Assembly (NCBI GenBank): GCA_964490325.1
Contig: CAZBBX010000003.1
Location: 25,381 to 89,380 of the forward strand
Reading direction: 5' to 3'
DNA: 64,000 nt
Origin: an uncultured Oscillospiraceae bacterium
Lineage (GTDB): Bacteria; Bacillota; Clostridia; Christensenellales; CAG-138
Part shown: in pieces, positions 5,535-58,348 of the stretch
Layout: each line of letters begins with the position of its first letter
Position numbering within the stretch: position 1 is the first letter of the stretch
The notes under the pieces: model-generated
Seen by the model: the letters and a program-made list of their open reading frames with translations, nothing else
Databases searched by the model: none
Told to the model about the DNA's origin: nothing
Made by a program: the position numbers and the translations under genes

Positions 5535-5650
5535 GTCTTCCTAAAGAGAAAAGCCGCTGCAAATACTGCACGAAAGATGACCAATCTTGCAAATCACGTG
5601 CAAAGAAAAGGAATATTTGGTAGTATTAAAAGCGGATATGGGAGGGGAAA

Positions 5651-5815
5651 ATGAACGGTATCGACATAGATATCCGTGAGGCAAATGAATATCAAAAGAT
5701 TTGTATAGAGGCATACGCAGCGGATCGGTATAACGGTATAAACGCGGCTTGTGCCTTTTGCGCATTTCCAAGGCTCCCTTTTCGATCCTGCCGCCGAGCG
5801 GCGCTGTGCCTATGA
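5651..5815 (+). CDS. candidate 54-codon upstream ORF (below ORF-track cutoff), stop overlaps next gene start (ATGA)
   Basis: GGGAGGGG lies 4-5 nt before the ATG at 5651. It translates to MNGIDIDIREANEYQKICIEAYAADRYNGINAACAFCAFPRLPFRSCRRAALCL. Its TGA at 5813-5815 overlaps the ATG at 5812 of a gene that has no SD of its own. Third-position GC is low, which counts against it being coding. Confidence 0.25.
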   Translation: MNGIDIDIREANEYQKICIEAYAADRYNGINAACAFCAFPRLPFRSCRRAALCL

Positions 5816-7308
5816 AAAGGCTGCTGCGTTTGATCGCCTGCCTGCTGCTTTGCGCTTTGCTGCTTGCAGCTGCCCCGCAAAGAAGCGCACAGTCGGAAGG
5901 CGCCGCGATCCAAGCGGCCGCGCAGAATATCCTGTGCGTCAAAGCGTATTGGAACAGAGTCACCATCTTGGAAGCCGGCATCAACAAGGAAAGGGCCTAT
6001 ACCTTGGGCGAGGGCTTCCTTGTTGGGTCGATCGAGGCCGCCGATGGGTCGACGCAGGCCGTGCTTGTAACGAACGCGCACTGCATACTTGACTCCACTG
6101 ACGATGCAGGCGCAGCGGACAGGGTCGTTGTCCTTGCAGCTGCTGCGGAGATCAACGCAAGCGTCGCATACAGAAACGAAGACTGCGACCTTGCGATCCT
6201 GTATTTGGACGCAGCCCTGCTTACGCAGGAAGCGCTGCCCCTGCGCAGGGAGGAAGCAGCGCCAAACGAGCCTGTATATGCGCTGAGCTTTGCGGCACAG
6301 GAGTCAGAATGGCATAAGGTCGGTATCCCGGTCACGGTACCCGAAACGGAGATCACGGAGGGCGTGATCGAAAGCCTGACGCAAGCGACCGCCGCAGGGT
6401 CGAGCACCGCGAGGAGCGTGGATGCATACCTGCACAGCGCCAAGCCCGCAGCGGACGGAGGCGGTCCTCTTTTAGACGCGCAGGGTGCGGTCATAGGAGT
6501 AAATTTCACTACGACGGACGGATCCGTTGCAGCGGTACGCATCCAAGAGCTTTGCAGCGCATTGGATGCACTCGGCGTTTCCTACACGACGGTGCAGCAG
6601 ACGGCAAGCCCGCCGATCCCCACGCAGGAGCCAACGCCGACAGCCGCCGAGCAGGCGGAGACGGACGCGCTCGATCAAATACCGACTGACCCTCCACAGC
6701 AGTCTGCCTCCTCGGCCGAGATGACGCAGCAAGCACCGCTGCAAAGCGCCGACGGCGATCCTGCGCAGGAGGATCCGCACAGCACGGTATTAGTGATCCT
6801 TGTTTGCATAGCGGCGCTGCTGGCGGGCTTAAGCGTGAGCCTTATCCTCCTTTGGCAGGCGGATAAAAAGCGGCGGAAGGCCTTGCCTTCGACACGGAAC
6901 GCCGTACAGGCCGACAAAAGCGTCATTCCCTGCGATAAGACAGAGGATCCGAGCAATATAGATCCATTGGATAAAGCGCAGGCACAGAGCGTTCCAAATG
7001 AGGAGGAACAAGCGGAAGCCTATCTGGAGCGCATAAGCACGGGAGAAAGGCTTCCGATCACGGACAGTCCGTTTCGGATCGGTCGTGCGCTCAAGCACAG
7101 TGGCCGCAAGGGGCAGGCAAACGCGGCGATCTACCGAAGCCGCGCAAGCATTACCTATCGGGAGGGAGAGTACCTCCTTTCCGACGGCAAGACCGCAGAC
7201 CATACCTGCGTCAATGAAAAGGAGATCCACGGCAGAACGGAGCTGCCGATCGTACAGGGAGACGTCATCCGCATTGCGGGGGAAGAGTTCATCTTTACCG
7301 TTCGATAG
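5812..7308 (+). CDS. membrane protein: secreted trypsin-fold (S1C-like, Ser->Gly) domain - TM - cytoplasmic FHA-like domain
   Basis: The signal peptide is MKRLLRLIACLLLCALLLAAA. His (VTNAHCI) and Asp (DCDLAILY) of the triad are present, but the GNSGGPL box reads DGGGPLLDAQGAVIGVN. A Pro/Gln linker, a TM (VLVILVCIAALLAGLSVSLILLW) and a C-terminal FHA-like segment (FRIGR...YRSRASITY...VNEKEI...FIFTV) follow. Confidence 0.75.
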   Translation: MKRLLRLIACLLLCALLLAAAPQRSAQSEGAAIQAAAQNILCVKAYWNRVTILEAGINKERAYTLGEGFLVGSIEAADGSTQAVLVTNAHCILDSTDDAGAADRVVVLAAAAEINASVAYRNEDCDLAILYLDAALLTQEALPLRREEAAPNEPVYALSFAAQESEWHKVGIPVTVPETEITEGVIESLTQATAAGSSTARSVDAYLHSAKPAADGGGPLLDAQGAVIGVNFTTTDGSVAAVRIQELCSALDALGVSYTTVQQTASPPIPTQEPTPTAAEQAETDALDQIPTDPPQQSASSAEMTQQAPLQSADGDPAQEDPHSTVLVILVCIAALLAGLSVSLILLWQADKKRRKALPSTRNAVQADKSVIPCDKTEDPSNIDPLDKAQAQSVPNEEEQAEAYLERISTGERLPITDSPFRIGRALKHSGRKGQANAAIYRSRASITYREGEYLLSDGKTADHTCVNEKEIHGRTELPIVQGDVIRIAGEEFIFTVR

Positions 7309-7344
7309 ATCGGCAGATCGAAACGGAGCAAGGGGGGAGCATAC

Positions 7345-8121
7345 ATGCGGTTTCTGTCGGCGGAGCATACAGATGTGGGGATCCGAAAGCAGGTCAATCA
7401 AGACGGTCTGCTGCTCAAGATCGTACAGTACGGCGATGAACAACTGGCGTTCGCGCTGCTTTGCGACGGTATGGGAGGTCTGTCCGATGGCGAGATCGCA
7501 AGCAACACCGTGCTTCGCGCCTTCCTCGATTGGTTCTCCGAAACGCTGCCTGCCATTTTGGAGGAGGGGCAGCTGACAAACGAGCGTATCAGCCGCGACT
7601 GGAGCCAAATCGCGCAAGCGCAGAACCAGCAGATCGGCCGTTATGCCGCGAAGCGCGGCATCCATATGGGAACGACGGCAACTGCGCTGCTGCTGGCCTT
7701 TGGCCACTACTATGTGATGAACGTGGGGGATACGCGGCTGTACCTGCTGCGCGACGGCGTGGAGCAGCTCACGGAGGATCAGACCTTTGTTGCAAGGGAG
7801 CTGGCGCAGGGCAGAATGACCAAGGAGCAGGCCGCTGCGGATCCAAGACGCAATGTGCTGCTGCAGTGCATCGGCGCATCCAACGAGGTAACTCCGGACT
7901 TTTTCTTCGGCGACTATCGGGAAGGCGACGCTTTTCTGCTGTGTACGGATGGCTTTCGGCATCTGTTGCGCAAGGAGGAGCTGCAACAAGCCTTTATGGG
8001 CGAAGACAGCAGCAGCGAGCAGAGCCTTAAGCAGCAGTGCGTAAGACTGACCGAGTTGAACAAGCAGCGCGGCGAGACCGACAACATAACGGCAGCGATC
8101 ATTAAGGCGGTGAGGGGCTGA
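7345..8121 (+). CDS. PP2C-family Ser/Thr protein phosphatase
   Basis: The motifs HTDVGIRKQVNQD, LLCDGMGG, NVGDTRLYL and GETDNITAAII are all present, and an RBS GGGGGAG lies upstream. Confidence 0.9.
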   Translation: MRFLSAEHTDVGIRKQVNQDGLLLKIVQYGDEQLAFALLCDGMGGLSDGEIASNTVLRAFLDWFSETLPAILEEGQLTNERISRDWSQIAQAQNQQIGRYAAKRGIHMGTTATALLLAFGHYYVMNVGDTRLYLLRDGVEQLTEDQTFVARELAQGRMTKEQAAADPRRNVLLQCIGASNEVTPDFFFGDYREGDAFLLCTDGFRHLLRKEELQQAFMGEDSSSEQSLKQQCVRLTELNKQRGETDNITAAIIKAVRG

Positions 8122-8122
8122 G

Positions 8123-9799
8123 ATGTTAGAGAACGGAACGATCATCGACGGGAAATATGAGATCCTGAGCAAGGTCGGGCAGGGCGGCATGAGCATCGTC
8201 TATTTGGCGCTGAACAGGAAGGCAAACAAGCAGTGGGCGATCAAGGAGGTCCGCAAGGACGGCGTTAAGGACTTTGAGCTTGTGCGGCAAAGCTTGGTCG
8301 TCGAAACGGACATGCTCAAGCGCTTGAGCCACCCCAACCTGCCCAGCATCGTGGACATCATCGATGAGGACGGACGCTTTTTGATCGTCATGGACTACAT
8401 CGAGGGCAAGCCGCTCAGCGCGATCCTAAAGGAGTATGGGCCGCAGCCGCAGTCCTATGTTCTGGAATGGGCCATTCAGCTTTGCGATGTGCTGGAATAC
8501 CTGCACACCCGCAAGCCTCCCATCATCTATCGGGATATGAAGCCGTCCAACGTCATGCTCAAGCCTGACGGCACGGTGGTGCTCATAGACTTTGGAACGG
8601 CACGGGAGTATAAGGAGCGGAATGTCGCCGACACGACCTGCCTTGGCACACTGGGCTATGCCGCACCCGAACAGTTTGGCGGCCATGGTCAGACCGACGC
8701 CCGCACGGACGTCTACTGCTTGGGCGCAACGCTGTACCATCTGCTGACGGGCAAAAGCCCCGCTGAGCCGCCATACCAGATCAAACCGATCCGCGAGTGG
8801 AATCCGCAGCTCTCCAAGGGACTGGAGGCGATCATCCTGCAATGCACGGAGCAGGATCCCAGGAAGCGTTTCCAAAGCTGTGCCGAGCTGAAATATGCGT
8901 TAGAGCATTCCGAAGAGTACGATGCGGCCTACCAAAAGCAGCAGCGTAAAAAAGCCGTAACCTTCCTTGTCACCATGGGCTTAAGCGTGCTGTGCGGCGT
9001 ATCCGCCGTGCTGTGCCTATTTGGTCGAAACACGATGCGTGACAAAAACTATCAGGCGCTGATCGAAGCGGGTGAATATAAGCAGGCTATTGCCATGAAG
9101 CCCGAAACGATGGACGCCTATGAGGCGATGATACGCTCCTTCAAGACGGACGGTGCGTTCACAACGGAGGAGGAGAGGCAGCTCAATTCGGTCATCACCG
9201 CATCCACAGGCGGCTCGGGCATGCAGGCCACGGATCACGATGCGCTCATCCGCGTGGGCAAGTATGATGAGCTGGCCTTTGAGATCGGTATCCTGTACAG
9301 CTGCTATTATCAATACGGCGGGCAGGAGACCACACCCCTTGTCTGCTCGGCGCCTTGGTTTCGCATTGCATCCGATGAGGTGTACGGCAACGACAAACGG
9401 GAATTGGCATACCTCTACTATCAGCTGGCCGCCATCTATGAGGATTCGAGCAACGCCATCATCGAGGGACGGGAAGCCGAGGACTATACAAAGGCGTGGA
9501 CGACCATGACCAAGATCGTGCAGTATCTAAAAACGGACAAAAGCATCGGTACGTATCTGCGCCTGCAGTTATACTACGCCGTGCAGTACAGCATCTATAA
9601 GGACGCAAGCAAGCTTGCACAATACTTGGAGCAGGGAGACGTCAACACGCTCCTCGGCGAAATGGAGACCGCCGTTAAGGCATTGGATCTGAAGGAAGAG
9701 GCCACGATCGCCGCCAAGGATCGCTTTATGCAGCAGCTGCCCAAGACCAAGGAAAGCATTACCGTAGCATACGGAAAGCAGGGGGTGAACAACGGATGA
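8123..9799 (+). CDS. Hanks-type Ser/Thr protein kinase with TM and non-PASTA extracellular domain
   Basis: Kinase motifs are GQGGMSIVY, WAIKEV, YRDMKPSN, DFGTA and GTLGYAAPE. A TM (AVTFLVTMGLSVLCGVSAVLCLF) and a roughly 250-aa ectodomain with no PASTA repeats follow. The start is 1 nt after the phosphatase stop. Confidence 0.9.
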   Translation: MLENGTIIDGKYEILSKVGQGGMSIVYLALNRKANKQWAIKEVRKDGVKDFELVRQSLVVETDMLKRLSHPNLPSIVDIIDEDGRFLIVMDYIEGKPLSAILKEYGPQPQSYVLEWAIQLCDVLEYLHTRKPPIIYRDMKPSNVMLKPDGTVVLIDFGTAREYKERNVADTTCLGTLGYAAPEQFGGHGQTDARTDVYCLGATLYHLLTGKSPAEPPYQIKPIREWNPQLSKGLEAIILQCTEQDPRKRFQSCAELKYALEHSEEYDAAYQKQQRKKAVTFLVTMGLSVLCGVSAVLCLFGRNTMRDKNYQALIEAGEYKQAIAMKPETMDAYEAMIRSFKTDGAFTTEEERQLNSVITASTGGSGMQATDHDALIRVGKYDELAFEIGILYSCYYQYGGQETTPLVCSAPWFRIASDEVYGNDKRELAYLYYQLAAIYEDSSNAIIEGREAEDYTKAWTTMTKIVQYLKTDKSIGTYLRLQLYYAVQYSIYKDASKLAQYLEQGDVNTLLGEMETAVKALDLKEEATIAAKDRFMQQLPKTKESITVAYGKQGVNNG

Positions 9800-10530
9800 G
9801 CGCCGAAGCATTGCTGTCTCTGTACAATACCCTATTTATTCTGTGCCTCATACTGTGCGGCGCCTTCCTTATACTAAGCGTCTGCCTGTTCTTTTTCAAC
9901 AAGGTGGGGCAGGCGTTCAAGTTTTTGTCGGGCAGATCGGCAGCCAAGGCCATCGACAAGATCACCAGTGACAGCCGCATGATGGAACGTTCGCACGCGG
10001 CGAACCCCGAGGCGAACTCACGCCGCCTGAAGGGCGGTAACAGCGGTCGGATCGGCGGAAACAGCGGTCGGATCGACAGGCCGAACGTGGCGGGCTATTT
10101 CCAAAAGGCGGGGACGAATGCGGGGGAACGCGTTCAAGCGCCGGTAAAGCCGATCGCCCCGCAGGGCGAGGGAACGTATCCACCGCGCACAAAGCAGCCG
10201 ATCGCGCAGGGCGGGGAGGACGATGCGACTTGGAGCCTGCAGCAAGCGCCGCAAAGACCCGTGCAGCAACGGGACAACGCCGATACCATGCCGCTCCTAT
10301 CTAAAAACGTCTCGGCCGCGCCAAAGGAAGAAGGAGCAAGCGCCGTGGCAGGCTTGAAGGCGGTCATATCGCAAGCGCCGCCGAAGCCCCAAACAGGACC
10401 CGTGCATACGGCAGGGGCGGCAGGTGAGACGAGCGTCTTGGAAGAAAAAGGGGACGCACAGGAAAAGAAAAAGGGCTTTGTGTCCGTCAAGGACGTGCTG
10501 CTCACGGGAACGGAGGAACGGATCCCATGA
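9796..10530 (+). CDS. single-pass membrane protein with Pro/Gly/Gln-rich disordered tail
   Basis: Its start forms an ATGA overlap with the kinase stop. It has an N-terminal TM (LFILCLILCGAFLILSVCLFFF) and a low-complexity remainder. GC3-rich codons support coding. Confidence 0.65.
   Translation: MSAEALLSLYNTLFILCLILCGAFLILSVCLFFFNKVGQAFKFLSGRSAAKAIDKITSDSRMMERSHAANPEANSRRLKGGNSGRIGGNSGRIDRPNVAGYFQKAGTNAGERVQAPVKPIAPQGEGTYPPRTKQPIAQGGEDDATWSLQQAPQRPVQQRDNADTMPLLSKNVSAAPKEEGASAVAGLKAVISQAPPKPQTGPVHTAGAAGETSVLEEKGDAQEKKKGFVSVKDVLLTGTEERIP
10033..10074 (+). repeat. perfect-register 21-bp tandem duplication (2 copies, 1 mismatch) encoding GGNSGRI GGNSGRI
   Basis: GGCGGTAACAGCGGTCGGATC is directly followed by GGCGGAAACAGCGGTCGGATC. 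Confidence 0.9.
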
Positions 10531-11021
10531 CAAAGGGAGTAAAGCGGATCGGCGTAAAGGCGTGCCGAATTTGGTTTTTCTTAAGCGTACTCTGCCTGCT
10601 GCTCTCCTCGGCAGCCGTCATTTTGATCCCCTTTGTGACCTTTGATCAAACAAAGGGCAAGCCGCTTTACGCCTACCTCACAGGCGCGGCGATCTGGGGA
10701 TTTATGCTGCTCGGCTACGGACTGTTCATCGGGCTGGCCTGCGCAACAAAGCAACATCGCAAAAAGGGCGACAAGACCTGGGGCATTTTCCGCGTATTTT
10801 CAAACCCGGAGGCGACCGCGGCGGATCTACTGCTCCTGCTGAGCCTGATCGCCTTCGTACTGCTGTGTGTGCTGCGGTATCAAAACAGCTTACTCGTGTG
10901 CAGCACGCTTGCTGTCCTTCTGCTTTCACTGCACCTGCATGGGCTGCTGAACGGAAGGGTCTATCAAAGCATTCGCACAAGACCCATATTAAACCGTCAA
11001 TCGCATAAAAAAGAACAATAA
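10527..11021 (+). CDS. four-TM membrane protein, unknown function
   Basis: Its start forms an ATGA overlap with the upstream gene. It has four hydrophobic segments and a basic C-terminus. Confidence 0.65.
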   Translation: MTKGVKRIGVKACRIWFFLSVLCLLLSSAAVILIPFVTFDQTKGKPLYAYLTGAAIWGFMLLGYGLFIGLACATKQHRKKGDKTWGIFRVFSNPEATAADLLLLLSLIAFVLLCVLRYQNSLLVCSTLAVLLLSLHLHGLLNGRVYQSIRTRPILNRQSHKKEQ

Positions 11022-11050
11022 CAAAGGGATCAACAAAGGAGGGAAAGAGA

Positions 11051-14000
11051 ATGAAAGCTTCTTCAAACTGGGTCAGGTTGACCGCATGGCTGCTGGTACT
11101 GCTGCTTTGCGCCTGCCTGTTGCCGATCGATCGAACGGCTGAGGCGGCGGAGGGCGAAACGCATCGGGTAGCATTTGAGTGCAATTACTACGGGGAATAC
11201 AGAGGACCTGCCCTCACGTACACGGAGGGAACAGAATTGCAGCTGCCAAGCGCAGACAACGTTGTAAATGTACATGATAAGATGGAATTCACGGGTTGGT
11301 CGTTGAACAACGCTGTGATAACCGCCATCCCCGCGGACTATACAGTGGAACCCGGCGCACAGATAAAGATCGTTGCCACATGGAAGATCACGGCGGATGT
11401 GTTCACAAGTACCTATGATGGCAGCTGGACGAACAAAGCAATCGAGTTCCAAGCGGATAACGGCTTTATGATCAATCCTTCCTCCTATTTCGACGAAGGA
11501 GAGAAAGATCTCGTGATTAAACAGGACGTAATATATGCCCCGACAACGGTCGAAGACCGAAAGAGCAGCGTCCATGTCAAGATCGACCGGACCGCTCCCG
11601 ATATCAGCTGCGATGCGATCGATGGATGGAATACGGAGGCTGTAGACGTCACATTTACTGTTACGGATGCGCTTTCCGGCGTTGCAGAGGTAAAGGTGGA
11701 TGATGCTGTCGTTGAGAAAAACGATGCAAATGAATACTCGTTTACCGCAAATTTCCCCGGGGAAACGAGCTATACGATCACAGCAACGGATCTTGCAGGA
11801 AACGTAAAAACGCAAATAGTTCATGCTGCGTACGATCCGACCGAGGCGATACTGTCCATGGAAACACAGGAAGAGTGGACGAATGCTGAGAGCGTAAAGG
11901 TAGAAGTCAATCTGAGCGAGAAACCCTACAGCGGCGTTAGCGGCACTTGGAGGCGCGGCAGCGAAGAGGGAGAGCTCGAATTTTCGGGTGAGCATGGCGA
12001 GTGCAAGGCAAGCTTCTTTGTCACGGAAGAAGGAAGCATGGACGCGGAAGCCGAGGTCGAGACAGGCGCAGGCAAAAAGTATTCCGCAGCTGCCGCCGTC
12101 ATGATCGACAGAACAAAGCCTGTCATCAGCGCCGCAGCTTCCACGCAGCCCAATGCAAATGGCTGGTACAGCACGGCGCCCACCATTGAGGTAACGGCAA
12201 GCGATACCCCCGCAGAAGGGGTGACGGAATGCAGCGGCGTCGGCAAGATCGAGTTCACGGCAAACGTGGATCTGAGCGGTCATTGGGACGAGCTGGTTCT
12301 GACCGATCCAAAGTTCACGGCGAACAGGGAGGGCGTGCAGACCTACACCGTGCGTGCGGCGGACAAGGCAAATAACAGCGCGAGCACCACTGTTACGATC
12401 AAGCTGGACAGCGCCGTTCCAAAGATCAAGGTCACACCGTCTGAGACTACATGGACAAGCGGGGCAGTCGAGCTAACGGTCAAGCTCACGGAAAGCATGA
12501 TCAGCGGAAACGCGATCAATGGGACATATACCTATACGAAGCGTGACGGCAGCTTAGGCGGCGGAACATTCGTACTGGACGAGATGGGAGAAGCAACGAT
12601 CACCATCGATGAGGAATGCAACACGGATGTATGCTTCACCGTAACATCCAATGCAGGCGTCTCATCGGAGCAGGCCGCTGCAAAGGTGCAGATCGACCGC
12701 ACGGCTCCCGTCATCGACAGCATAACGATCGATGATGAGATCTTCACCATGGTGGGCGCGGTGTTCACCTTTAACACCATCATTACGCCGGACAGCTATC
12801 TGGCCATCGAGGCGCACGACGAGTGGGGCGAATTGGATCATGCGGAGCTGACCATAACAGGCGAACGGGATGGGGACGCCTATCCGCAGACCCGCAGCGC
12901 CGACTTTATCATGGTGCAGCATGTCCTGACGGCGACCTTCAAAGTCGACACGGATATCACGGGAACCTTCTGCTTTACAGCCTGCGATAAGGCAAACAAC
13001 AGCACGGCCTCCGCGAACAAGGAGAATATCGTGGCGGAGAGCTCCAACGCCGCACTGACGATCTCTACACCGATATGGAGGGACAGCCTTGAGGAATATG
13101 ACGGCGATCCTACAAAGACCGCCGCGGACTATCTTGTCGTCACCCTATCGGGACAGGCCTATTCCGGCATCAAAGAATACCTTTGGAGCAGCGAAGAGGG
13201 AGGGGCGTTTGTACCGCTGACGACGCTTGCGGAGAATAACGGGGATCCGTACTTCTACTCCGTGACCGTGGCGGGAGAGTCGAGCGACGAGTTCATCACG
13301 ACCGTTCCCTCTGTGACCATCACGTTCTGCATTCTCAAGGAGGCGAAGACCTTCTACTTTAAGACGATCAGCAACGCGGGACATGAATCGAGCGTACAAA
13401 GCGTCACGGTCCCTGCGGACGGTATCGCGCCTGTGGTAACGCTGGATTGGAGCGAGACCCATACCGCCGAGAGCACGGGCTTTGCGTACTACAACGCCGC
13501 AAGAACGCTGACGATCACGGTACAGGAGCACAACTTCGATCCCGAATCCTCCACGCTCAGCTTTACGGGGATGGATCAAAAGACAGGTGACGCAATCACC
13601 GCTTCCACGCTGAACTGGCAGCCTGTGGAGACCAGAGGCCCAAGCGATACGCTGAAGACCTATCGAGCCGAGTATACCTTTGGCGAGGGCGAATACACAG
13701 ATGTAGCCGTCAACGTTACGGATCTTGCGGGAAATTCTTGGACGCCGCAGCAGATCCGTCAGTTCATCGTTGACACGACCGCACCGATCATCAGCTTCGT
13801 GGAGACGACGGCCGTCGACGACGAGCCTGTGCCGCTGGGTGAAACCAACTACTACCATGCCGTTCGCAGCTATGTGATCGAGGTGGAGGATGCGAACTTC
13901 GATCCCTTTGCCGCTGCCGAAGGCTCCATGGTCAACGGAAAGTGGCAGCAGCTGACGGCAAGCTTCTTGGACGGCAGCACTGCGCCTGTAGAGGAGAGCT

Positions 14001-16012
14001 GGACAAAGGTCGAGGGCAAGCGCAACAGCTATCGCTGCAGCCTCAGCTTTGCCGAAGGCCGCTATATGGACGGCATTCGCTTGCAGCTGTACGATTATGC
14101 AACGAATGCTTCCAACATCTTGGAGGACAAGACGCCCTTCATCGTGGACATGACGGCGCCCAAGATCGCGATCAGCAGCGTCACTTCATCGCACCTTGCC
14201 GCGTTCAACGGCACTGAGACCTATTTCCATGCGCTGCCCTCGCTGGGCGTAACGGTCACCATCACCGACAATGTCTCGGGCGTGGGCTATGGCACGGTGC
14301 TGTCCCCTGCGGTCAGATACACCACGGCAAACACGGACGTCTTTACGGAAACTGCGCTTACGGAGAGCGATCCTCAGGCAAAGGTGGATATCTCCATCTC
14401 GGTTGCCGAGAACGCCTTGGGCAAGATCCTTGCAAACGCTTGGGACTGGAGCGGCATTCAGGCAACGCAGGCGGAGACGGCACAGTTTACCGTTGACAAC
14501 ACGACCCCCAGATGCACCGTAACGTTCAACGATGCATACGGCGAACACGACGGCAAGGATTACTACGGCAAGACGGAGGGTGAGATCACCATCTCCGTCA
14601 CGATCGAGGAGGTATTCTTTGATCAATCCAAGATCGAGCAGTCCCTGCAGCTGAACAACGGCGGCAGTGGCAAGCTGCTGTATTTCACGAACGACAGCAA
14701 CTGCCACTACGCCAAGATCACCCTCACGGACGATGGCGACTATCGTCTGTTCCTCAAGTATGTCGACTTTGCAGGGCATGCCTTAGCGGATTACGCATCG
14801 AACGTGAAGGTGCTGGACACCGTTGCACCAACGATCCGCATCACGGGTGTGAGCGACCGCACGGCGTATGCGGGAGACTGCACGCCAATCGTCACCTGCT
14901 TTGACAGGAACATGAACGAAGGCGCACTCAAGATCCTCTTCTCGGGCAAGAATCGCGGCGAGCTGACCCCAAGCGGCAGCTATACGAGCTATTCCGGCAC
15001 GGAGGCAGCGCATTTTGGTGCGGTGACGGGCAAGGTGTTCACCTTCGATCCCTTTGCCGATACCCGCGAGAACGACGACGTGTACACCCTGTCGGCCTCC
15101 TGCACGGACTATGCGGGCAACACGACCGATACGAGCAACACCCCTGCAACAACGCAGCTGAGCTTCTCCCTAAACCGCAACGGTTCCGTGTTCTACTACG
15201 AGAAGGAGTCCGAGGCGATCAATGGGACATACATCAATCAGGAGCAAACGCTGCTGCTGCACGAGATCAACGTGACCGACATTGAAACGACCAAGATCCT
15301 TGTTACGGGTTCGCTTAACAGCAGCGAGCTGACGGACGGCAATGGGTATGCGATGGAGGATCGCAGCGAAGCGGATGGCTGGAAGGAATATGTCTACAGC
15401 ATTAAGGACACCAACTTCACCAAGGAGGACAGCTATCAGGTCGTGGCGCGTTCCGAGGACGTGACCGAGCTGATCTATGAGAGTACCGATGAAGGACGCG
15501 GCGCAGAGCTTGACGCGGCAGGCAACGTGCTTGCCGAGGACAAGGGCGCAGACATGAATTTCACCGTTGACAAGACAGCGCCGCTGCTGATGTACATCGA
15601 CCTGTCCGATCAAAGCGATGAGAACCGTTCGCAGGGCGACAGCCGCATGGTACAGTTCCGCGTAAAGGACGACTGCAAGCTGGAGAAGATCATGCTGACG
15701 ATCAACGGGGAGACGCAGATCTTTACCGCGGATTCTCCCGAGATCACAGGCCAGTCCGCAAGGGAGTGGGAGCTGAGCTTCAACCTGAACGAGAGCAACA
15801 ACTGGCAGACCATCAACGTATCCATCAGCGATGCAGCAGGCAATACAAGCACCCTGATGCAGTATAAGGCACTGGTCACCAACAACGTTCTGGTGCAGTA
15901 CTTCTACAACAAGCCTCTGTTCTACGGGTCGATCGCAGGCGTTGTGGTGATCCTTGCTGCAGCCGCATGGATCGTCACAGCCCGCAAAAAGGCCAAGAAA
16001 GCAAAGGCATAA
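11051..16012 (+). CDS. 1,653-aa cell-surface Ig-like-domain repeat protein with C-terminal TM anchor
   Basis: An RBS AAAGGAGGG and the signal peptide MKASSNWVRLTAWLLVLLLCACLL open the gene. The N-terminus has a Listeria-Bacteroides-type repeat (VAFECN...FTGWSL). About 10 module boundaries carry a (I/V)D-x-T-A-P-x-I motif (KIDRTAPDI, MIDRTKPVI, QIDRTAPVI, VDTTAPII, VDMTAPKI, LDTVAPTI, VDKTAPLL and others). The C-terminus is a hydrophobic helix plus RKKAKKAKA. Confidence 0.85.
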   Translation: MKASSNWVRLTAWLLVLLLCACLLPIDRTAEAAEGETHRVAFECNYYGEYRGPALTYTEGTELQLPSADNVVNVHDKMEFTGWSLNNAVITAIPADYTVEPGAQIKIVATWKITADVFTSTYDGSWTNKAIEFQADNGFMINPSSYFDEGEKDLVIKQDVIYAPTTVEDRKSSVHVKIDRTAPDISCDAIDGWNTEAVDVTFTVTDALSGVAEVKVDDAVVEKNDANEYSFTANFPGETSYTITATDLAGNVKTQIVHAAYDPTEAILSMETQEEWTNAESVKVEVNLSEKPYSGVSGTWRRGSEEGELEFSGEHGECKASFFVTEEGSMDAEAEVETGAGKKYSAAAAVMIDRTKPVISAAASTQPNANGWYSTAPTIEVTASDTPAEGVTECSGVGKIEFTANVDLSGHWDELVLTDPKFTANREGVQTYTVRAADKANNSASTTVTIKLDSAVPKIKVTPSETTWTSGAVELTVKLTESMISGNAINGTYTYTKRDGSLGGGTFVLDEMGEATITIDEECNTDVCFTVTSNAGVSSEQAAAKVQIDRTAPVIDSITIDDEIFTMVGAVFTFNTIITPDSYLAIEAHDEWGELDHAELTITGERDGDAYPQTRSADFIMVQHVLTATFKVDTDITGTFCFTACDKANNSTASANKENIVAESSNAALTISTPIWRDSLEEYDGDPTKTAADYLVVTLSGQAYSGIKEYLWSSEEGGAFVPLTTLAENNGDPYFYSVTVAGESSDEFITTVPSVTITFCILKEAKTFYFKTISNAGHESSVQSVTVPADGIAPVVTLDWSETHTAESTGFAYYNAARTLTITVQEHNFDPESSTLSFTGMDQKTGDAITASTLNWQPVETRGPSDTLKTYRAEYTFGEGEYTDVAVNVTDLAGNSWTPQQIRQFIVDTTAPIISFVETTAVDDEPVPLGETNYYHAVRSYVIEVEDANFDPFAAAEGSMVNGKWQQLTASFLDGSTAPVEESWTKVEGKRNSYRCSLSFAEGRYMDGIRLQLYDYATNASNILEDKTPFIVDMTAPKIAISSVTSSHLAAFNGTETYFHALPSLGVTVTITDNVSGVGYGTVLSPAVRYTTANTDVFTETALTESDPQAKVDISISVAENALGKILANAWDWSGIQATQAETAQFTVDNTTPRCTVTFNDAYGEHDGKDYYGKTEGEITISVTIEEVFFDQSKIEQSLQLNNGGSGKLLYFTNDSNCHYAKITLTDDGDYRLFLKYVDFAGHALADYASNVKVLDTVAPTIRITGVSDRTAYAGDCTPIVTCFDRNMNEGALKILFSGKNRGELTPSGSYTSYSGTEAAHFGAVTGKVFTFDPFADTRENDDVYTLSASCTDYAGNTTDTSNTPATTQLSFSLNRNGSVFYYEKESEAINGTYINQEQTLLLHEINVTDIETTKILVTGSLNSSELTDGNGYAMEDRSEADGWKEYVYSIKDTNFTKEDSYQVVARSEDVTELIYESTDEGRGAELDAAGNVLAEDKGADMNFTVDKTAPLLMYIDLSDQSDENRSQGDSRMVQFRVKDDCKLEKIMLTINGETQIFTADSPEITGQSAREWELSFNLNESNNWQTINVSISDAAGNTSTLMQYKALVTNNVLVQYFYNKPLFYGSIAGVVVILAAAAWIVTARKKAKKAKA

Positions 16013-16023
16013 GCAAGCAAGGG

Positions 16024-16055
16024 GAGGGGCTTACCTCGCGTAAGCCCCTCTTTTT
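16024..16055 (+). terminator. strong intrinsic terminator directly after the giant surface-protein gene
   Basis: GAGGGGCTTAC / GTAAGCCCCTC form a perfect 11-bp stem with a 5-nt loop, followed by TTTTT. The next ATG is only 16 nt further on. Confidence 0.75.
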
Positions 16056-16071
16056 AGGATGGGATGTGTGA

Positions 16072-18915
16072 ATGATGGAAAGCCAACAGAACAAAGAAAG
16101 CAGGCAACAGCTGTGCATTGCGGCTGTGCAAAAACCGTTGGCAGGCGCCCTGCTTCTCGCCTTTACGGGCGCATGGGCAGCGATGCTGTGCATAAGCGAA
16201 AACGGCTTGGAAGCGGTCAATCTTTGCATAAGCGGCGCTCCCTCTTTCCTGTTCTTGGCGGTTCTGCTGCTGTCCTCCTTTTTAGAGGGGAGGGCAAAGC
16301 GCCTGACGCTCTCAATTGCACTGCTCCTTCCCTTCGGCCTTAATGTCCTCTATTTCATTTATCGCATGCTTGCCGCGGCACAACAGGGTGAATTTGCAGC
16401 CTTGTCCGCATATGCCGCGCCTGCTGCCTCCTTTGCGGCGTGCTTCATGGGCATAGCCGTATTGGTATCAAATCGCACGGGTACGCGCTTGCTGGCCTGC
16501 ATGGCTGCGGCGTTTGCACTTACGGCACAGCTGCTGCGGTGGATGGACGCCGCGCCTTCCGTCACGCTCATCTTGGAGAGCGGCATGACGATCCTCTTTG
16601 TGACGGGTGTTCTTGCCGTTGCGATCAATACACGTTCCATAAAGCGCTTAAAGCGCGTACAAATCAAACGGCGACTGACCATAGCGGACTGTCAACTGGA
16701 TCTGGCGCGGCACAGCCTGCGCCTGTTCCTGAGCTTCGGCGTTTGGCGTATGATCTGGACCTATCGCATGACGCGTTGCTTTTATGTCGGAGCGCGGCAG
16801 GGAAAGAAGGCGGGCGGAACGATCCTGCTGTACCTGTTTGTGCCCTTCTACGCCGTATACTGGAATTATCGTCTGGCAAAGATCTTGGATCAAACAAAGC
16901 AAGAGCTTGGCTTTGCGGGCAGGAGTGCCTTAAGCTGCCTGCTGCTGACGCTGTTTGGCTGCGGCGGCATAGCCACCATACTCCTGCAGGACTCCGTGAA
17001 CGCCATAGCGGAGCGTAAGCTGTTCGAGGACACGCGGCTGCTGGCTCGGGCAAGCACACTTTTGCAGTTTGGGGACGCGCCCGTGCTGATCGGGGAACGC
17101 TGCGTGCGCAAGGATCGTTCCAAACGAACGGTCTTTGGGACGGCGCGCCTTCTGCCCATCGGCAAACGAAAGCTGCTTTCCGTTCGCTTTGACATCATCG
17201 GCAAGGACGCGGCAGGCGCGGAAGTGGAGACGCAGCGCGGCGTCACCTTTGCTGACTTTACGGAGGACGAGCAAACAGACGGCGGCTGCCAAATGAAGTT
17301 TCCCTTCTCCGATTCGACGGTGCGAAGCTTTTCCATCCGTCCCGTTGAAGCGCTTTATGGATCGGGAGCCGAATGGAAGGGCGGGGACGCTGTTTGCACG
17401 GTCCTTGCTGCGCAGAAACGTCTGGAAGCGGACGGTCGTTCGGAAGCGCTCGTGCGCCGCTATCGGCAGGCACTGTATGCACGCTGCCCCAACTGTGACG
17501 CCGTCTTTGCACCAACGGAGTACGGCGAGCTGCTGGCGTGCAGCTGCGGCGGCATAGGCGAACGCAGCGAACGCTGTCCCTGCTGCGACACGCCGCTTGC
17601 GATCCAATGGGAGCTGTACAAAAAAGACGCATTGGAAGAGGCACAGCAGGCGGAACGGGAACGCAAAAGCGTCGCAAAGGAGCCCCTCCGCAAGGGCTTC
17701 GGACTGGGCATGGCAAGCGTACTGCTGCTGGCGTTACTGGTGTTCTCCCTGTCCTATGCGCTGCCCGAGCTGAAGCTGTTGCAGGCGAAGCAGCTGTATG
17801 ACGAAGGGGAATATGCAAAGGCGCGGGAAAGCTTTGTCATTATGAGCGGCTATACAGGCAGCAACGAATATGTCAACGCCTGTGATTATGCCACAGCGGC
17901 CGCCTTGGAGGAGCAGGGCGATACGGCTGCTGCCGCAAGCCTGTTCGCCTCGTTAAACGGCTACAAGGACAGCGCGGCGCGCAGCAGCAAGCTTGACGCG
18001 GGAGCGGCATATGACTATGCGGTGGCCTGCTATCGGCGCGGCGCGTATCGGGACGCCATCACCGCGTTAGAACCCTTGGAGCGGGACGCCTATTCCGATG
18101 CAGACTACCTGTATCAGCTTTCGCATCTTGGCGTCATCCAACAACTTTTAGAGCAGGAGGAGCTGCAAAAGGCTATGGAGCTGGGGGAGAGCTGCGCTAA
18201 AAAGCTGTATTGGCAGCCCGATGGCGAACTGATGCAGATGTATACGCAGCTGTTGTCCGCCTATTTATCGGATAAAGCGGACTGGTCGGAGAAGCTGATC
18301 CTGTGGGACTACTTTGATATGTCGGATCAAAAGGGACAGTACAGCAGGGAGCTGTTTGCCCGCTCCGAACTGTTTCGCGACGGAGATCTGTACGGCCTGC
18401 GCCTCACGGAGGGCAGAATACAGCCCTGCATCCTGCAAGCGGCAGAATATGCAAAGATCGTGCTTATAGAGGGAGCGGACTACGCTATCGTGTCCGTCAA
18501 CGGCGTCCTCATGGGAACCATGCTTGCGGATGGGAGCTTCCGCATTGCGCCGCTGTTTTCGGAGTATCGCAGGATCGATGACAACTACTATCGCATCTCG
18601 CATGACGGCAAGTACGGCGTGATGAGCAAGGACGGACAGCTTGTGCTTCCCCAAGTCTACGACGAGCTTGCCCTGCTGCACTCCTATGCGGACAAACGCC
18701 TTGTTTGGATACGCGAAGGCGAACTGTGGGGCGTCTACGACCTGCACAAGCAAAAGGTGACGGTGACGCCGCAGTTTAGCACACTGCCCGAAGCCTACCT
18801 GTATGATAATAACGGTGCAGTGGTCGCCGATGGCACATATGCATTGCTGGACGGACAGCTGGTTAATGATGAGGGAGAGGCCGTTCCCCTGCCAAGCACA
18901 GCGCCGACCGCCTGA
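16072..18915 (+). CDS. 947-aa polytopic membrane protein: N-terminal multi-TM block, DUF4234-like segment, Cys4 zinc-ribbon, TM, helical-repeat region, C-terminal WG-type repeats
   Basis: It has at least 6 N-terminal hydrophobic helices. FVPFYAVYWNYRLAKILD resembles DUF4234. CPNCDAVF...CSCGG...CPCCDTPL is zinc-ribbon-like. The C-terminus carries WG-type repeats (KYGVMSKDGQLVLPQVYDEL, LWGVYDLHKQKVTVTPQFS). Confidence 0.7.
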   Translation: MMESQQNKESRQQLCIAAVQKPLAGALLLAFTGAWAAMLCISENGLEAVNLCISGAPSFLFLAVLLLSSFLEGRAKRLTLSIALLLPFGLNVLYFIYRMLAAAQQGEFAALSAYAAPAASFAACFMGIAVLVSNRTGTRLLACMAAAFALTAQLLRWMDAAPSVTLILESGMTILFVTGVLAVAINTRSIKRLKRVQIKRRLTIADCQLDLARHSLRLFLSFGVWRMIWTYRMTRCFYVGARQGKKAGGTILLYLFVPFYAVYWNYRLAKILDQTKQELGFAGRSALSCLLLTLFGCGGIATILLQDSVNAIAERKLFEDTRLLARASTLLQFGDAPVLIGERCVRKDRSKRTVFGTARLLPIGKRKLLSVRFDIIGKDAAGAEVETQRGVTFADFTEDEQTDGGCQMKFPFSDSTVRSFSIRPVEALYGSGAEWKGGDAVCTVLAAQKRLEADGRSEALVRRYRQALYARCPNCDAVFAPTEYGELLACSCGGIGERSERCPCCDTPLAIQWELYKKDALEEAQQAERERKSVAKEPLRKGFGLGMASVLLLALLVFSLSYALPELKLLQAKQLYDEGEYAKARESFVIMSGYTGSNEYVNACDYATAAALEEQGDTAAAASLFASLNGYKDSAARSSKLDAGAAYDYAVACYRRGAYRDAITALEPLERDAYSDADYLYQLSHLGVIQQLLEQEELQKAMELGESCAKKLYWQPDGELMQMYTQLLSAYLSDKADWSEKLILWDYFDMSDQKGQYSRELFARSELFRDGDLYGLRLTEGRIQPCILQAAEYAKIVLIEGADYAIVSVNGVLMGTMLADGSFRIAPLFSEYRRIDDNYYRISHDGKYGVMSKDGQLVLPQVYDELALLHSYADKRLVWIREGELWGVYDLHKQKVTVTPQFSTLPEAYLYDNNGAVVADGTYALLDGQLVNDEGEAVPLPSTAPTA

Positions 18916-18984
18916 TACAGCAAAGCACGTATCCGCGTTTACATACAAGACCAGACTGCTTCAACAGAAAATTTTGCCTCCGTC

Positions 18985-19027
18985 AAAAAAAGGATCTTGA
19001 CCCGACTATGCGGGCAAGATCCTTTGT
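18985..19027. terminator. bidirectional terminator between the 947-aa gene and the sortase gene
   Basis: A 13-bp stem (AGGATCTTG[A]CCCG / CGGGCAAGATCCT) is flanked by A7 upstream and TTTGT downstream. Confidence 0.7.
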
Positions 19028-19062
19028 GCTTATGAAATGGGAATGGCTGCGCTTTCCTTGCG

Positions 19063-20091
19063 TCAGTCGATGGGGACCAAGACGCCCTGCACGATGAAGC
19101 GCTGCATGTCGTCCTTAACAACGCAGGTGACAAGGGTGATGATCTTATCGTCCGAGGTGGGGATGATCCCCGTGGTGACCTCGGAGCGCACCGCGCAGCC
19201 CGTCAGGTAGGACTGGTAGTCACTGCTGCTGTCGAAGCGCGTTACGTTGTAGTCGCCTGCAATGTCGTCCTGATAGGCGGCAAACACATAGATAAGGTAA
19301 TTCTGCGATGGCGTATACAGCTGCATGACGGGATGCGAATCAAAGTAGCTCTGCGTAGCGTACTTGTTCAGCTTGCCAAACATGGAGCCGTTGTTCATGC
19401 GATGCCCATGGATGATGGTATTGCGGGTCTTAAACGGCGTAAAACCGGATTCAATGAACAGACTGCCCGCAATGTTTTCCGTTTGGTCATACATATGCGT
19501 GAGGTAGTAGCCGGTCGGATGCGCATCCGATTCCTGCACCACGGGATAGTTGATGGAGGAATCCTGCAGATAGAGCCAAGCCACCACGTCACTGTTGATC
19601 GCTCGCAGCGTGGTGAAGTTGATATCGATCGGGGAGATGGTCGTTTGACCGTCGGTGGCTGCGGGGGTAGCCGTAGCCGTACTGCCGTTGGAGGTAGCCT
19701 TTGCGGTCGCCTTGCTCGTTGCTTTGCTTGTTGCCTTAGCCGTTGCACTTGCAGCAGCCGCCGTATCCGTAGGCTGCGGGTCTTCGGTGCCCGGGCTGCC
19801 TGCATCGGGGGTGGTCAGCGGCTCGGTCGGCTCGGGCGTATCCGTGACGGGTACGGAAGTTGTGACCTGATACGGATCCAAGGGGATCACGATCGTTTGA
19901 CCGTCCGAAGTAACGGCTTGATCGATCGCATCGTCAATGACGCGCTTCGCTTCCCAGGGACGCGATTCCAAAAGCTGCAGCAGGATGAGCGTGCAGCTGA
20001 TAACAATGATCAGGATCAAAACCAGCATGACGATGGTCAAAACCATCTTTTCCTGCTGTTTTTTCTTGCTTGCCTTGGTGTTAGAAGTCAT
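19063..20091 (-). CDS. srtB: class B sortase with a long Thr/Pro/Ala-rich stalk
   Basis: The ATG at 20091 is preceded by AAGGAGGA. A TM (MVLTIVMLVLILIIVISCTLILL) and a roughly 130-aa low-complexity linker follow. The catalytic domain reads INSDVVAWLYLQDSSINYPVVQ...TIIHGHRM...IITLVTCVV. Confidence 0.8.
   Translation of the reverse strand: MTSNTKASKKKQQEKMVLTIVMLVLILIIVISCTLILLQLLESRPWEAKRVIDDAIDQAVTSDGQTIVIPLDPYQVTTSVPVTDTPEPTEPLTTPDAGSPGTEDPQPTDTAAAASATAKATSKATSKATAKATSNGSTATATPAATDGQTTISPIDINFTTLRAINSDVVAWLYLQDSSINYPVVQESDAHPTGYYLTHMYDQTENIAGSLFIESGFTPFKTRNTIIHGHRMNNGSMFGKLNKYATQSYFDSHPVMQLYTPSQNYLIYVFAAYQDDIAGDYNVTRFDSSSDYQSYLTGCAVRSEVTTGIIPTSDDKIITLVTCVVKDDMQRFIVQGVLVPID
19697..19756 (-). 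repeat. about five 12-bp tandem units encoding (A/S)KAT repeats in the sortase linker
   Basis: The plus strand reads GCCTTGCTCGTT GCTTTGCTTGTT GCCTTAGCCGTT and so on. The protein reads ATAKATSKATSKATAKATS. Confidence 0.7.
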
Positions 20092-20110
20092 AACATCCTC
20101 CTTGCGTGTC

Positions 20111-20139
20111 ATTATACTACAACGCTCCCCCTTCGTCAA
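20111..20139 (-). promoter_or_regulatory. near-consensus sigma-A promoter of the sortase gene
   Basis: The minus strand reads TTGACG-17 nt-TATAAT, about 20 nt upstream of the RBS and ATG. Confidence 0.65.
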
Positions 20140-27463: not shown

Positions 27464-27475
27464 ACGAACGCCTCC

Positions 27476-28522: not shown

Positions 28523-28634
28523 GAGATACCTCCGTTATGAAATTTTACAACAAAAGAACGCAAGCGCAGGTCTCCCTTTTACGGTCGCCGCTTCCTCACG
28601 GCGCCGCCGCGCTCACGTTCCTAATATAGCAAAT

Positions 28635-58307: not shown

Positions 58308-58348
58308 ATCCGTCCATCAAAAGCGATTCTTGAAGGGAGTATTTGGAG

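Follow-up and report, generated by a model that had tools for sequence, protein, structure and literature searches.

A 64,000-nucleotide stretch of contig CAZBBX010000003.1 from an uncultured Oscillospiraceae bacterium (the window, to which coordinates refer unless a related locus is named) contains an operon that encodes a trypsin-like domain joined through a transmembrane (TM) segment to an FHA domain, a PP2C phosphatase, a Hanks-type Ser/Thr kinase, two small membrane proteins and a giant surface protein of 1653 amino acids (aa) with immunoglobulin (Ig)-like repeats. This locus is an ATPase-less, protease-FHA-bearing version of the accessory module predicted for the type VII secretion system (T7SS) variants T7SSe, T7SSd and T7SSj, and that version is new. 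We consider it probable that the locus is a relative of T7SSe- and T7SSj-type clusters that lacks their ATPase and in which a threonine-phosphorylation switch is arranged around a giant envelope-spanning Ig protein.

The genes from 5651 to 16012 form one + strand operon with the following open reading frames (ORFs); the Tse names are explained below.

5651–5815, + strand: 54-aa ORF, apparent 5' stump of a stand-alone FHA gene
5812–7308, + strand: 498-aa ORF, signal peptide, trypsin-like domain, TM segment and cytoplasmic FHA domain
7345–8121, + strand: 258-aa ORF, cytoplasmic PP2C/PPM phosphatase, TseF-like
8123–9799, + strand: 558-aa ORF, Hanks Ser/Thr kinase with TM segment and non-PASTA ectodomain, TseD-like
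9796–10530, + strand: 244-aa ORF (p244), N-terminal TM segment and disordered cytoplasmic tail, TseH-like
10527–11021, + strand: 164-aa ORF (p164), 4-TM membrane protein of an unnamed family
11051–16012, + strand: 1653-aa ORF, giant Ig-repeat surface protein, TseI-like

The ORF map places ATGA start/stop overlaps at 5812, 9796 and 10527, a single nucleotide (nt) between genes at 8121/8123, and 36 and 29 nt at the other gaps, bearing out the tight packing reported in a preliminary description of this DNA. The domains named there (trypsin fold, FHA, PP2C and a Hanks kinase without PASTA repeats) were recovered with Pfam and NCBIfam models, and its membrane topologies were reproduced by hydropathy analysis.

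Correspondence to a predicted type VII secretion accessory set

T7SSd (Actinomycetota), T7SSe (Bacillota) and T7SSj (Clostridium) were defined by an EssC-centred neighbourhood analysis (Garrett & Palmer 2024, Microlife 5:uqae013; PMC11217815). Their description is purely computational (PMC11217815), and we found no experimental work on T7SSd, T7SSe or T7SSj components in the literature. Starting from EssC, D, H and I components were present at all T7SSd and T7SSe loci; the named sets are TseF/TseD/TseH/TseI, TsdD/H/I and TsjD/F/I, and the EssC proteins of those subtypes carry FHA domains with intact phosphothreonine pockets (PMC11217815). In the collective nomenclature of that study, TsxD is a Ser/Thr kinase anchored by a TM segment, its active site intact and its outer C-terminal domain helical, TsxF is a cytoplasmic PPM phosphatase, TsxH has a single TM segment and a short unstructured cytoplasmic region, and TsxI is a large protein that combines Ig-like modules with a Sec signal and a C-terminal TM segment (1654 aa in Olsenella uli). 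TsxJ is a cytoplasmic DUF6382 + FHA protein, TsxK is a single-TM protein with a short cytoplasmic stretch, and TsdI was proposed to span the envelope as EsaA does (PMC11217815).

Matched by description, proteins of the window correspond to TsxD, TsxF, TsxH and TsxI. The published descriptions, together with homologues at two related loci (L013 and L017), suggest that the window phosphatase, kinase, p244 and giant protein fit TseF, TseD, TseH and TseI, respectively. Sequence comparison indicates that all four are homologues of proteins whose genes adjoin an EssC-type ATPase at these two loci. At L013, the cassette is followed by genes for a second DUF6382-FHA protein, an AAA_31 ATPase, YukD, a 1506-aa FtsK_SpoIIIE protein with an FHA domain, and WXG100; at L017, those for another kinase, an FHA protein, an FtsK_SpoIIIE protein (1566 aa) and a LytTR protein come next. 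Over ~1390 aa the two FtsK_SpoIIIE ATPases share 32% identity, and they contain multiple Walker A motifs. Genes for YukD, WXG100 and an EssC-type ATPase with FHA domains are the signature of type VII secretion in Bacillota. The preliminary description had found no named counterpart for the gene set; the set does carry names, TseF/TseD/TseH/TseI (PMC11217815), and the counterpart is a computational prediction. A TsxJ-type gene was not found in the window: only the 54-aa stump of a stand-alone FHA gene is present, and the trypsin-TM-FHA protein occupies the position.

Kinase, phosphatase and small membrane proteins

The phosphatase matches NF033484 (Stp1/IreP; E = 4.8e-51) and PP2C_2 (E = 3.3e-11), and its metal-binding motifs are visible in the sequence. 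It is 41–66% identical to the phosphatases of related loci L002, L004, L009, L013, L014, L016 and L017, with values of 41% and 45% for the EssC-linked L013 and L017, respectively. The kinase (Pkinase, E = 1.4e-46) has a TM segment at aa 277–302 followed by an ectodomain of ~255 aa. Pfam gave no PASTA match in the kinase, and NF033483 aligns with the kinase domain alone (aa 5–274; 206 bits versus a cut-off of 450). Residues K41, D138, N143, DFG and APE are invariant in an alignment of kinases from 10 loci, which are 37–72% identical over their whole length and 40–72% identical over BLAST-aligned stretches; against the EssC-linked kinases, BLAST aligned aa 1–499 at 40% identity (L013) and aa 1–491 at 52% identity (L017). 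Threonines are present in the activation loop ('DTTCLGT'). The ectodomain, which has no match among PDB sequences, appears helical in a single-sequence model whose pLDDT of 33 is too poor for a fold search.

Neither p244 nor p164 has a Pfam or NCBIfam match. An N-terminal TM segment of p244 is followed by a ~200-aa Pro/Gly/Gln-rich disordered cytoplasmic tail. Homologues at the same position in L002, L004, L009, L013, L014, L016, L017 and L018 define a family with an N-terminal TM segment, a juxtamembrane motif 'G.L(S/T)G..A.K.I' ('LSGRSAAKAI' in p244), a disordered region and a 'GETxVL' motif ('GETSVL' at aa 210–215 of p244, positions 10421–10438). At locus L012 (10001–14971 of that locus), a p244-like segment is fused in frame to the giant protein, so that a TM segment, a short cytoplasmic loop with GATELL and a second hydrophobic segment precede the Ig modules. 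This fusion supports physical contact between the TseH-like and giant proteins. Hydropathy analysis predicts four TM segments in p164. Homologues of 150–162 aa lie between the TseH-like and giant genes in L002, L013, L014, L016, L017 and L018 and share seven invariant residues (G53, W57, A96, D100, S106, H138 and N142); judged by this sequence conservation and placement, the 4-TM family is part of the cassette.

The motif G-E-T-x-[VI]-L recurs in one to three copies in the linkers just before the FHA domains of both the DUF6382-FHA and the trypsin-FHA proteins and in the TseH-like tails of all loci; in the window species, p244 alone keeps it. FHA domains prefer pT-x-x-(L/I/V), and GETxVL fits this preference because a Leu stands at +3. 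The motif, which is not described in PMC11217815, is a candidate kinase target and FHA ligand.

The giant Ig-repeat protein

Hydropathy analysis of the giant protein identified a Sec signal peptide, a TM segment at aa 1621–1646 and a Lys-rich tail. Pfam matches to Big_13, Big_3 and OmpL47-type domains were sub-threshold, and no match was found among PDB sequences. An AlphaFold model of aa 1131–1653 (523 residues; 18 homologues) reached a pLDDT of 84 and comprises four beta-sandwich modules and a TM helix. Foldseek comparison of this model with the PDB returned multi-Ig proteins only, including DSCAM, the B-cell receptor and the giant adhesin SiiE. Taken together, hydropathy, AlphaFold and Foldseek uphold the earlier view of a giant signal-peptide protein built of Ig modules with a C-terminal TM segment and a basic tail.

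Conservation is highest in the last ~520 residues, which include the pre-TM motif 'LVTxNxxVQ[FY][FY]xNKPLFxG' and the Lys-rich tail. This C-terminal part is 26–32% identical to the giants of L013, L017, L014 and L012 over ~500–900 aligned residues. No LPXTG- or NPQTN-type sorting motif precedes the TM segment, the C-terminus reading ...ALVTNNVLVQYFYNKPLFYG-TM-RKKAKKAKA, and the pre-TM motif is also kept at loci without a sortase.

The trypsin-TM-FHA protein and the deleted FHA gene

The 498-aa protein matches Trypsin_2 (E = 8.7e-15) and has a signal peptide and a TM segment at aa 320–351 (hydropathy). Its FHA match is marginal (20.5 bits, with the cut-off at 20.7), but the orthologue at L002, a locus in a second species, matches at 7.9e-14 and makes the assignment firm. 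The architecture given in the preliminary description is therefore sound, but the catalytic Ser is absent and the FHA pocket is degenerate. At aa 212–218 (6445–6465), ADGGGPL stands where the family has GNSGGPL, with Gly in the place of the nucleophilic Ser; an alignment with 47 family members shows that the other two triad residues, His (NAHC) and Asp (DLAIL), are kept. The FHA motif at 7120–7150 reads YRSR versus SRSH in the family and TADHT versus TTNHT, with Tyr, Arg and Asp replacing the phosphothreonine-contacting Ser, His and Asn, that is, three of the five canonical contacts. Both the Ser-to-Gly change and the FHA substitutions are present in all five independently assembled strain variants, which excludes a sequencing error, and the ORF is full length in each of them. 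The protein does not qualify as an active serine protease of the HtrA/DegP or MarP type, as the Ser is Gly, a PDZ domain is missing and NCBIfam scores are far below the cut-offs.

An exhaustive HMMER search recovered 1369 representatives of the trypsin-TM-FHA family at E ≤ 1e-3 and 151 at E ≤ 1e-10, mostly of 480–600 aa. Catalytic residues are also missing from about one-eighth of the aligned members, which points to tolerance of a non-catalytic role. The window protein is 37% identical to its L002 orthologue, versus 66% for the phosphatase, 72% for the kinase, 68% for the 4-TM protein and 56% for the giant, and these values indicate that the protease-FHA protein evolves fast. Genomic searches with a four-sequence protease-FHA alignment retrieved six loci in genomes and three in metagenomes; L005, L006 and L008 gave generic trypsin matches only and were dropped. 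The fusion was found in the window, L002, L004, L007 and L017, and it is not mentioned in PMC11217815. The widespread trypsin-TM-FHA protein, newly noted here, stands in for TseJ, the cytoplasmic FHA adaptor.

A stand-alone FHA protein of 297 aa in L002 occupies the position of the 54-aa ORF. The ribosome-binding site and approximately the first 10 codons of this ORF align with L002 from position 3880 of that locus onward (N-termini MNGIDIDIRE versus MSGIELDMRT), and tblastn found no FHA remnant elsewhere in the 64-kb window. The alignment indicates that the 54-aa ORF is the stump of an FHA gene from which ~0.7 kb was deleted in the window species. With the stand-alone gene deleted, the remaining pocket mutated and the protease Ser gone, the FHA arm of the system has decayed in this species.

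Related loci and conservation of the cassette

Orthologues of the giant and of the 947-aa protein encoded downstream of it were sought by a word-indexed search of 5.8 billion proteins. The window organism is rare (exact-sequence clusters hold two to seven members), and a single full-length orthologue of the giant was found: P0037, from the L002 species, at 56% identity. L002 preserves the complete block from the LytTR gene to a 945-aa gene. Eight giant-homologue loci were sampled (L002, L012, L013, L014, L016, L017, L018 and L019); three further loci (L004, L007 and L009), reached from the protease-FHA family, are also given below, with gene orders as read toward the giant where one is present.

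L002 (P0037): upstream as in the window, plus a 297-aa FHA gene; different flanks, no sortase
L012 (P0043): kinase abuts the giant; no PP2C or FHA gene; unrelated genes around
L013 (P0065): DUF6382-FHA, PP2C, kinase, 166 aa, 162 aa; then an EssC-type ATPase cluster
L014 (P0045): Peptidase_A24, TPR/WG_beta_rep, DUF6382-FHA, PP2C, kinase, 186 aa, 162 aa; a DUF5702 gene further upstream
L016/L019 (P0084, P0062): upstream as L014; a Zn-ribbon/MamF-like gene downstream
L017 (P0080): trypsin-FHA, PP2C, kinase (52% identical), 175 aa, 155 aa; then an EssC-type ATPase
L018 (P0044): PP2C, kinase, 155 aa, 153 aa; unrelated genes around
L004 (Oscillospiraceae metagenome-assembled genome): FHA, trypsin-FHA, PP2C, kinase (41%, same ectodomain), p244-like, secreted Flg_new-repeat protein
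L007: SpoIVB, FHA, PP2C, trypsin-FHA, kinase with a leucine-rich repeat ectodomain
L009 (low-GC metagenome contig): FHA, PP2C, kinase (40%), p244-like, signal-peptide Ig protein of >898 aa

The operon type recurs in many Clostridia. All eight giant homologues have a kinase of the same subfamily upstream, either adjacent or two small genes away. Kinases from seven of these loci are 40–72% identical to the window kinase, ectodomain included; that of L019 was assigned by its L016-like layout and left out of the kinase alignment. A TseH-like protein is encoded at seven of the eight loci (fused to the giant in L012) and a 4-TM homologue at six. L009, which was reached independently via its FHA protein, repeats the kinase-to-giant arrangement, and its Ig protein shares 'YYNxxRxxxIxVxExNFD' modules with the giant. 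Linkage that holds across lineages with kinases only ~40% identical ties the kinase and phosphatase to the giant, as the preliminary description had proposed. The conservation of neighbourhood that it proposed to test holds for the kinase and the giant; synteny of the 947-aa and LytTR genes is confined to the window and L002. Likewise, the trypsin-FHA/PP2C/kinase triad is present here but is one of several variants, and most relatives have a cytoplasmic DUF6382-FHA protein where the window has the fused protease.

The commonest form of the cassette (L014 1–4600, L016 1–4800 and L019 1–2300) lies directly downstream of genes for a very large DUF5702 protein, a Peptidase_A24 prepilin peptidase and a WG_beta_rep protein. 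These neighbours suggest that the cassette is associated with Tad/type IV pilus-like genes and not with EssC.

Transcription signals and neighbouring genes

Further features of the locus lie on either side of the core genes.

4776–5534, + strand: LytTR-type response regulator, 252 aa (start as called in public assemblies)
5560–5650, + strand: putative operon promoter and leader, from a DNA alignment of the window with L002 3790–3880
16021–16055, + strand: intrinsic terminator-like hairpin and T run, end of the core operon
16072–18915, + strand: 947-aa ORF, polytopic accessory protein
19063–20091, − strand: class B sortase (TIGR03064)

Within the leader at 5560–5650, TGCACG / TGC.A repeats and a TTTGGTAnnAT box resembling an extended −10 element precede a GGGAGGGG ribosome-binding site, and the region is conserved with L002. 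The TGC repeats may be LytTR operator sites, and the conservation of this promoter region suggests control by the LytTR regulator. That protein matches Pfam LytTR (E = 5.5e-14) and is 55% identical to an L002 orthologue with Response_reg and LytTR domains; its receiver retains the acidic pocket, the Asp of 'IFDLDD', the Ser and the Lys-Pro. It is an orphan, with no adjoining histidine kinase gene. Its position is shared with L002 only, while L017 has a LytTR gene after EssC. At the other end of the operon, a hairpin at 16021–16050 is followed by TTTTT, and the fold of 16010–16075 has an energy of −25.6 kcal/mol (z = −2.64). A simple terminator pattern scan missed this hairpin, which folding detected; the fold energy substantiates the strong terminator noted earlier between the giant gene and the 947-aa gene.

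The N-terminal part of the 947-aa protein is a polytopic membrane domain (DUF4234-like); the protein also contains a Cys-rich zinc-ribbon-like segment, a further TM segment at 539–570 and an outer TPR-like region with WG-type repeats. Its Pfam matches are sub-threshold, DUF4234 reaching 29 bits in the L002 orthologue, and it has no match among PDB sequences. Its earlier description as polytopic stands, and the WG-repeat call falls below threshold (21.4 versus 25.6 bits). An orthologue was found only in the L002 species (P0156, 945 aa, 50% identical). In L014, L016 and L019, WG_beta_rep and Zn-ribbon/MamF-like proteins are encoded by separate genes next to the module. Comparison of the 947-aa protein with these WG_beta_rep, Zn-ribbon/MamF and TPR neighbours gave repeat-level matches (E ~5e-4 in a tiny database), a thematic likeness that we do not take as proven orthology.

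The sortase scores 162 bits with TIGR03064, above the cut-off. Its gene converges on the locus 150 nt downstream of the 947-aa gene and has a near-consensus promoter (TTGACG-17-TATAAT, 11 of 12 consensus matches), as had been described; a part in the module does not follow, with no sortase at L002 or any other sampled locus. We regard it as a bystander, because the module occurs elsewhere without it and the giant lacks a sorting motif. The N-terminal region of the sortase is unusually long, with a TM segment followed by a Thr/Pro/Ala-rich linker containing (ATSK)n repeats.

Three other regions of the window were noted. Two secreted proteins (660–1901 and 58343–60772, both + strand) carry type I dockerin domains, a hint of cellulosome-like complexes in this organism. 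An ornithine/lysine fermentation cluster (20772–29768, − strand) encodes alanine-racemase-like and MutL-like proteins, D-ornithine/lysine aminomutase subunits, OrtA/OrtB-like proteins, a diaminopentanoate dehydrogenase-like protein and an aminotransferase. An aldehyde:ferredoxin oxidoreductase (43352–45250, + strand; AFOR_N/AFOR_C, E = 8e-116) adjoins an iron-containing alcohol dehydrogenase at 41687–42907.

Secretion-system relative or separate module

Several observations weigh against assigning the locus to T7SS-type clusters. Searches by tblastn with the L013 and L017 proteins (E ≤ 1e-3) found no EssC, YukD, WXG100 or AAA_31 in the 64-kb window, although the sensitivity of tblastn is limited for small helical proteins such as WXG100 and YukD; the locus is gene-dense from 4.7 to 20.8 kb, and its sole small ORF is the 54-aa FHA stump. 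No T7SS gene occurs in the 2.8 kb upstream of the window, and the surrounding genes are of a housekeeping kind, among them those for Spo0A, flotillin, glycosyltransferases, ornithine/lysine fermentation enzymes, tRNA synthetases and RecD2. EssC is absent within the sequenced flanks of L002, L012, L014, L016/L019 and L018. Judged from gene content, the features that define a T7SS are thus missing, at least locally, and the T7SS link may be facultative or coincidental. The TseF, TseD, TseH and TseI assignments were made through L013, L017 and matching descriptions rather than from published sequences, TseK is described as a single-TM protein (PMC11217815) versus four predicted TM segments in the conserved protein here, and DUF6382 was undetectable in the L002 FHA protein. 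Membership of the 947-aa protein is uncertain, as a terminator precedes its gene and only two species carry it. The phosphorylation of GETxVL, the docking of FHA domains and the formation of a complex are themselves inferred from sequence. These points give some room to an autonomous phospho-regulated giant-adhesin or surface-fibre module that T7SS and Tad loci merely adjoin or have recruited, essentially the view of the preliminary description. EssC adjoins the cassette in only two of eight lineages with flanks seen; the very common L014/L016/L019 type sits beside Peptidase_A24 and DUF5702 instead, L012 and L018 lie among unrelated genes, the flanks of the window and of L002 are housekeeping genes, and the giant carries its own Sec signal peptide and so needs no T7SS for export. 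We nevertheless judge such a module the less likely reading, though a serious one. The independent loci L013 and L017 have an EssC-type ATPase within 5–7 kb downstream on the same strand, with YukD and WXG100 as well at L013, and an EssC gene for the window species may lie elsewhere in its genome. The presence of D, H and I at all T7SSd and T7SSe loci approached from EssC and the intact phosphothreonine pockets of the FHA-bearing EssC, which fit a shared kinase, point the same way (PMC11217815).

Loss of the ATPase, WXG100 and YukD could also have left a decaying T7SSe-like remnant without organised function. The reduction of the FHA gene to a stump, the substitutions in the protease and FHA domains, the low identity of the protease-FHA orthologues and the absence of an ATPase from the window would all suit such a remnant, but all eight ORFs are intact, including those of 4.9 and 2.8 kb, and they are conserved with L002 at 40–72% identity. 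The kinase catalytic residues are all intact, the protease-FHA ORF is full length in every strain variant, and loss of catalytic residues is shared by about one-eighth of its family; because all ORFs are intact across strains, we consider a remnant improbable. Two further explanations were rejected as having hardly any likelihood. An anti-phage defence system based on a Hanks kinase (PD-T4-6, MADS or BREX-PglW type) was suggested by scores of the kinase against PADLOC PD-T4-6 and mad6, NCBIfam MADS6 and PglW, and of the phosphatase against PDC-M21C; these matches are to generic kinase and PP2C catalytic domains and fall well short of the family cut-offs. PADLOC matched none of the TseH-like, 4-TM, giant and 947-aa proteins, and no defence genes are found among the neighbours. 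A sortase-dependent adhesin or pilus locus, with the giant as substrate of the class B sortase, would account for the convergent sortase gene and its strong promoter, but the pre-TM motif of the giant is not of the LPXTG or NPQTN type and the other loci have no sortase. A comparison with vWA-ternary and conflict systems (Kaur et al. 2020) gave no match to the window gene set.

Comparison with known systems

The likeness to T7SSe, T7SSd and T7SSj comprises a membrane kinase, a PPM phosphatase, a single-TM unstructured protein, separate FHA proteins and a giant Sec/Ig/C-terminal-TM protein of nearly the same length (1654 aa in O. uli versus 1653 aa in the window). In contrast to those systems, the 64-kb window is without EssC, WXG100 and YukD, a trypsin-TM-FHA protein replaces the TseJ-type adaptor, and the second FHA gene is deleted. 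The trypsin-TM-FHA protein, the 4-TM protein, the LytTR regulator and the 947-aa protein are additions relative to the published list.

Phosphorylation circuits of a similar type control other envelope machines. Type VI secretion systems (T6SS) are regulated by PpkA/PppA/Fha1 in Pseudomonas aeruginosa, and TssL phosphorylation acts with Fha in Agrobacterium. As in these systems, a membrane Hanks kinase, a PP2C phosphatase and an FHA adaptor would gate an envelope machine via phosphothreonine docking; unlike them, the window has no T6SS structural genes, its host is Gram-positive, and homology is limited to the generic catalytic and FHA domains. The gated object here would be the giant Ig-repeat protein, with or without a T7SS ATPase. 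Actinobacterial FhaA/FhaB-PstP-RodA-PbpA-PknA/PknB loci and the PASTA kinases (PrkC, Stk1 and IreK) with Stp1/IreP share adjacent, overlapping phosphatase and kinase genes and a co-encoded FHA protein, and the window phosphatase matches Stp1/IreP best. The window differs from them in having no PASTA, RodA/FtsW or PBP, and its kinase ectodomain belongs to another, helical-appearing family that is kept with the giant cassette.

Within T7SS itself, EsaA is polytopic with a largely helical ectodomain. MycP, a subtilisin, is the membrane-anchored extracytoplasmic serine protease of the T7SSa core, and its presence, not its catalysis, is needed for complex stability. The giant would resemble EsaA/YueB of T7SSb as a wall-spanning extracellular component, TsdI and by extension the window giant being the proposed analogues. 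MycP parallels the Ser-less trypsin-TM-FHA protein by analogy only. Sequence and fold are unrelated in both cases: the giant consists entirely of Ig-like beta-sandwiches and the protease has a trypsin fold.

Proposed mechanism and implications

If the locus is an ATPase-less relative of T7SSe- and T7SSj-type clusters, the orphan LytTR regulator would drive a single transcript from the promoter near 5600. The kinase would sense an envelope cue via its ectodomain and phosphorylate the Thr of GETxVL in the TseH-like tail and, in other species, in the FHA-adaptor linkers as well. Docking of FHA domains on the resulting phosphothreonines could then build or hold together a membrane complex in which the TseH-like and 4-TM proteins meet the C-terminal anchor of the giant, and the phosphatase would reset the switch. 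In complete systems, FHA-bearing EssC would join this platform, and the giant would act as a conduit or contact device that spans the wall, the role put forward for TsdI. Through the trypsin-TM-FHA protein, phosphorylation in the cytoplasm may determine where a protease or pseudoprotease sits on the outer face.

For the window species, the kinase, phosphatase, TseH-like, 4-TM and giant genes are intact, and the module most likely works as a phospho-regulated surface fibre or adhesin, either alone or with an ATPase encoded elsewhere. More broadly, and tentatively, the cassette could be an autonomous phosphothreonine-gated wall-spanning fibre that is commoner than the T7SS variants, functions in many Clostridia with no T7SS ATPase at all and was secondarily plugged into T7SS (L013, L017) or Tad-pilus (L014, L016) neighbourhoods. 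The trypsin-TM-FHA protein, with >1300 family representatives, would then be an inside-out adaptor that places an outer-face protease or pseudoprotease according to phosphorylation state. We regard this as possible rather than probable.

ATPase-less loci were hidden from the T7SSd/e/j definition because that search ran outward from EssC. Searching outward from the giant instead reveals a kinase/phosphatase/TseH-like/TseI-like cassette that often has no EssC nearby, which bears on whether these proteins are true parts of a secretion machine or a separable surface module. The GETxVL motif, the TseH-like/giant fusion, the 4-TM partner and the large, previously undescribed trypsin-TM-FHA family are testable elements of this cassette. 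Giant surface proteins of this kind in uncultured gut-type Clostridia are likely determinants of cell-to-cell or cell-to-host contact.

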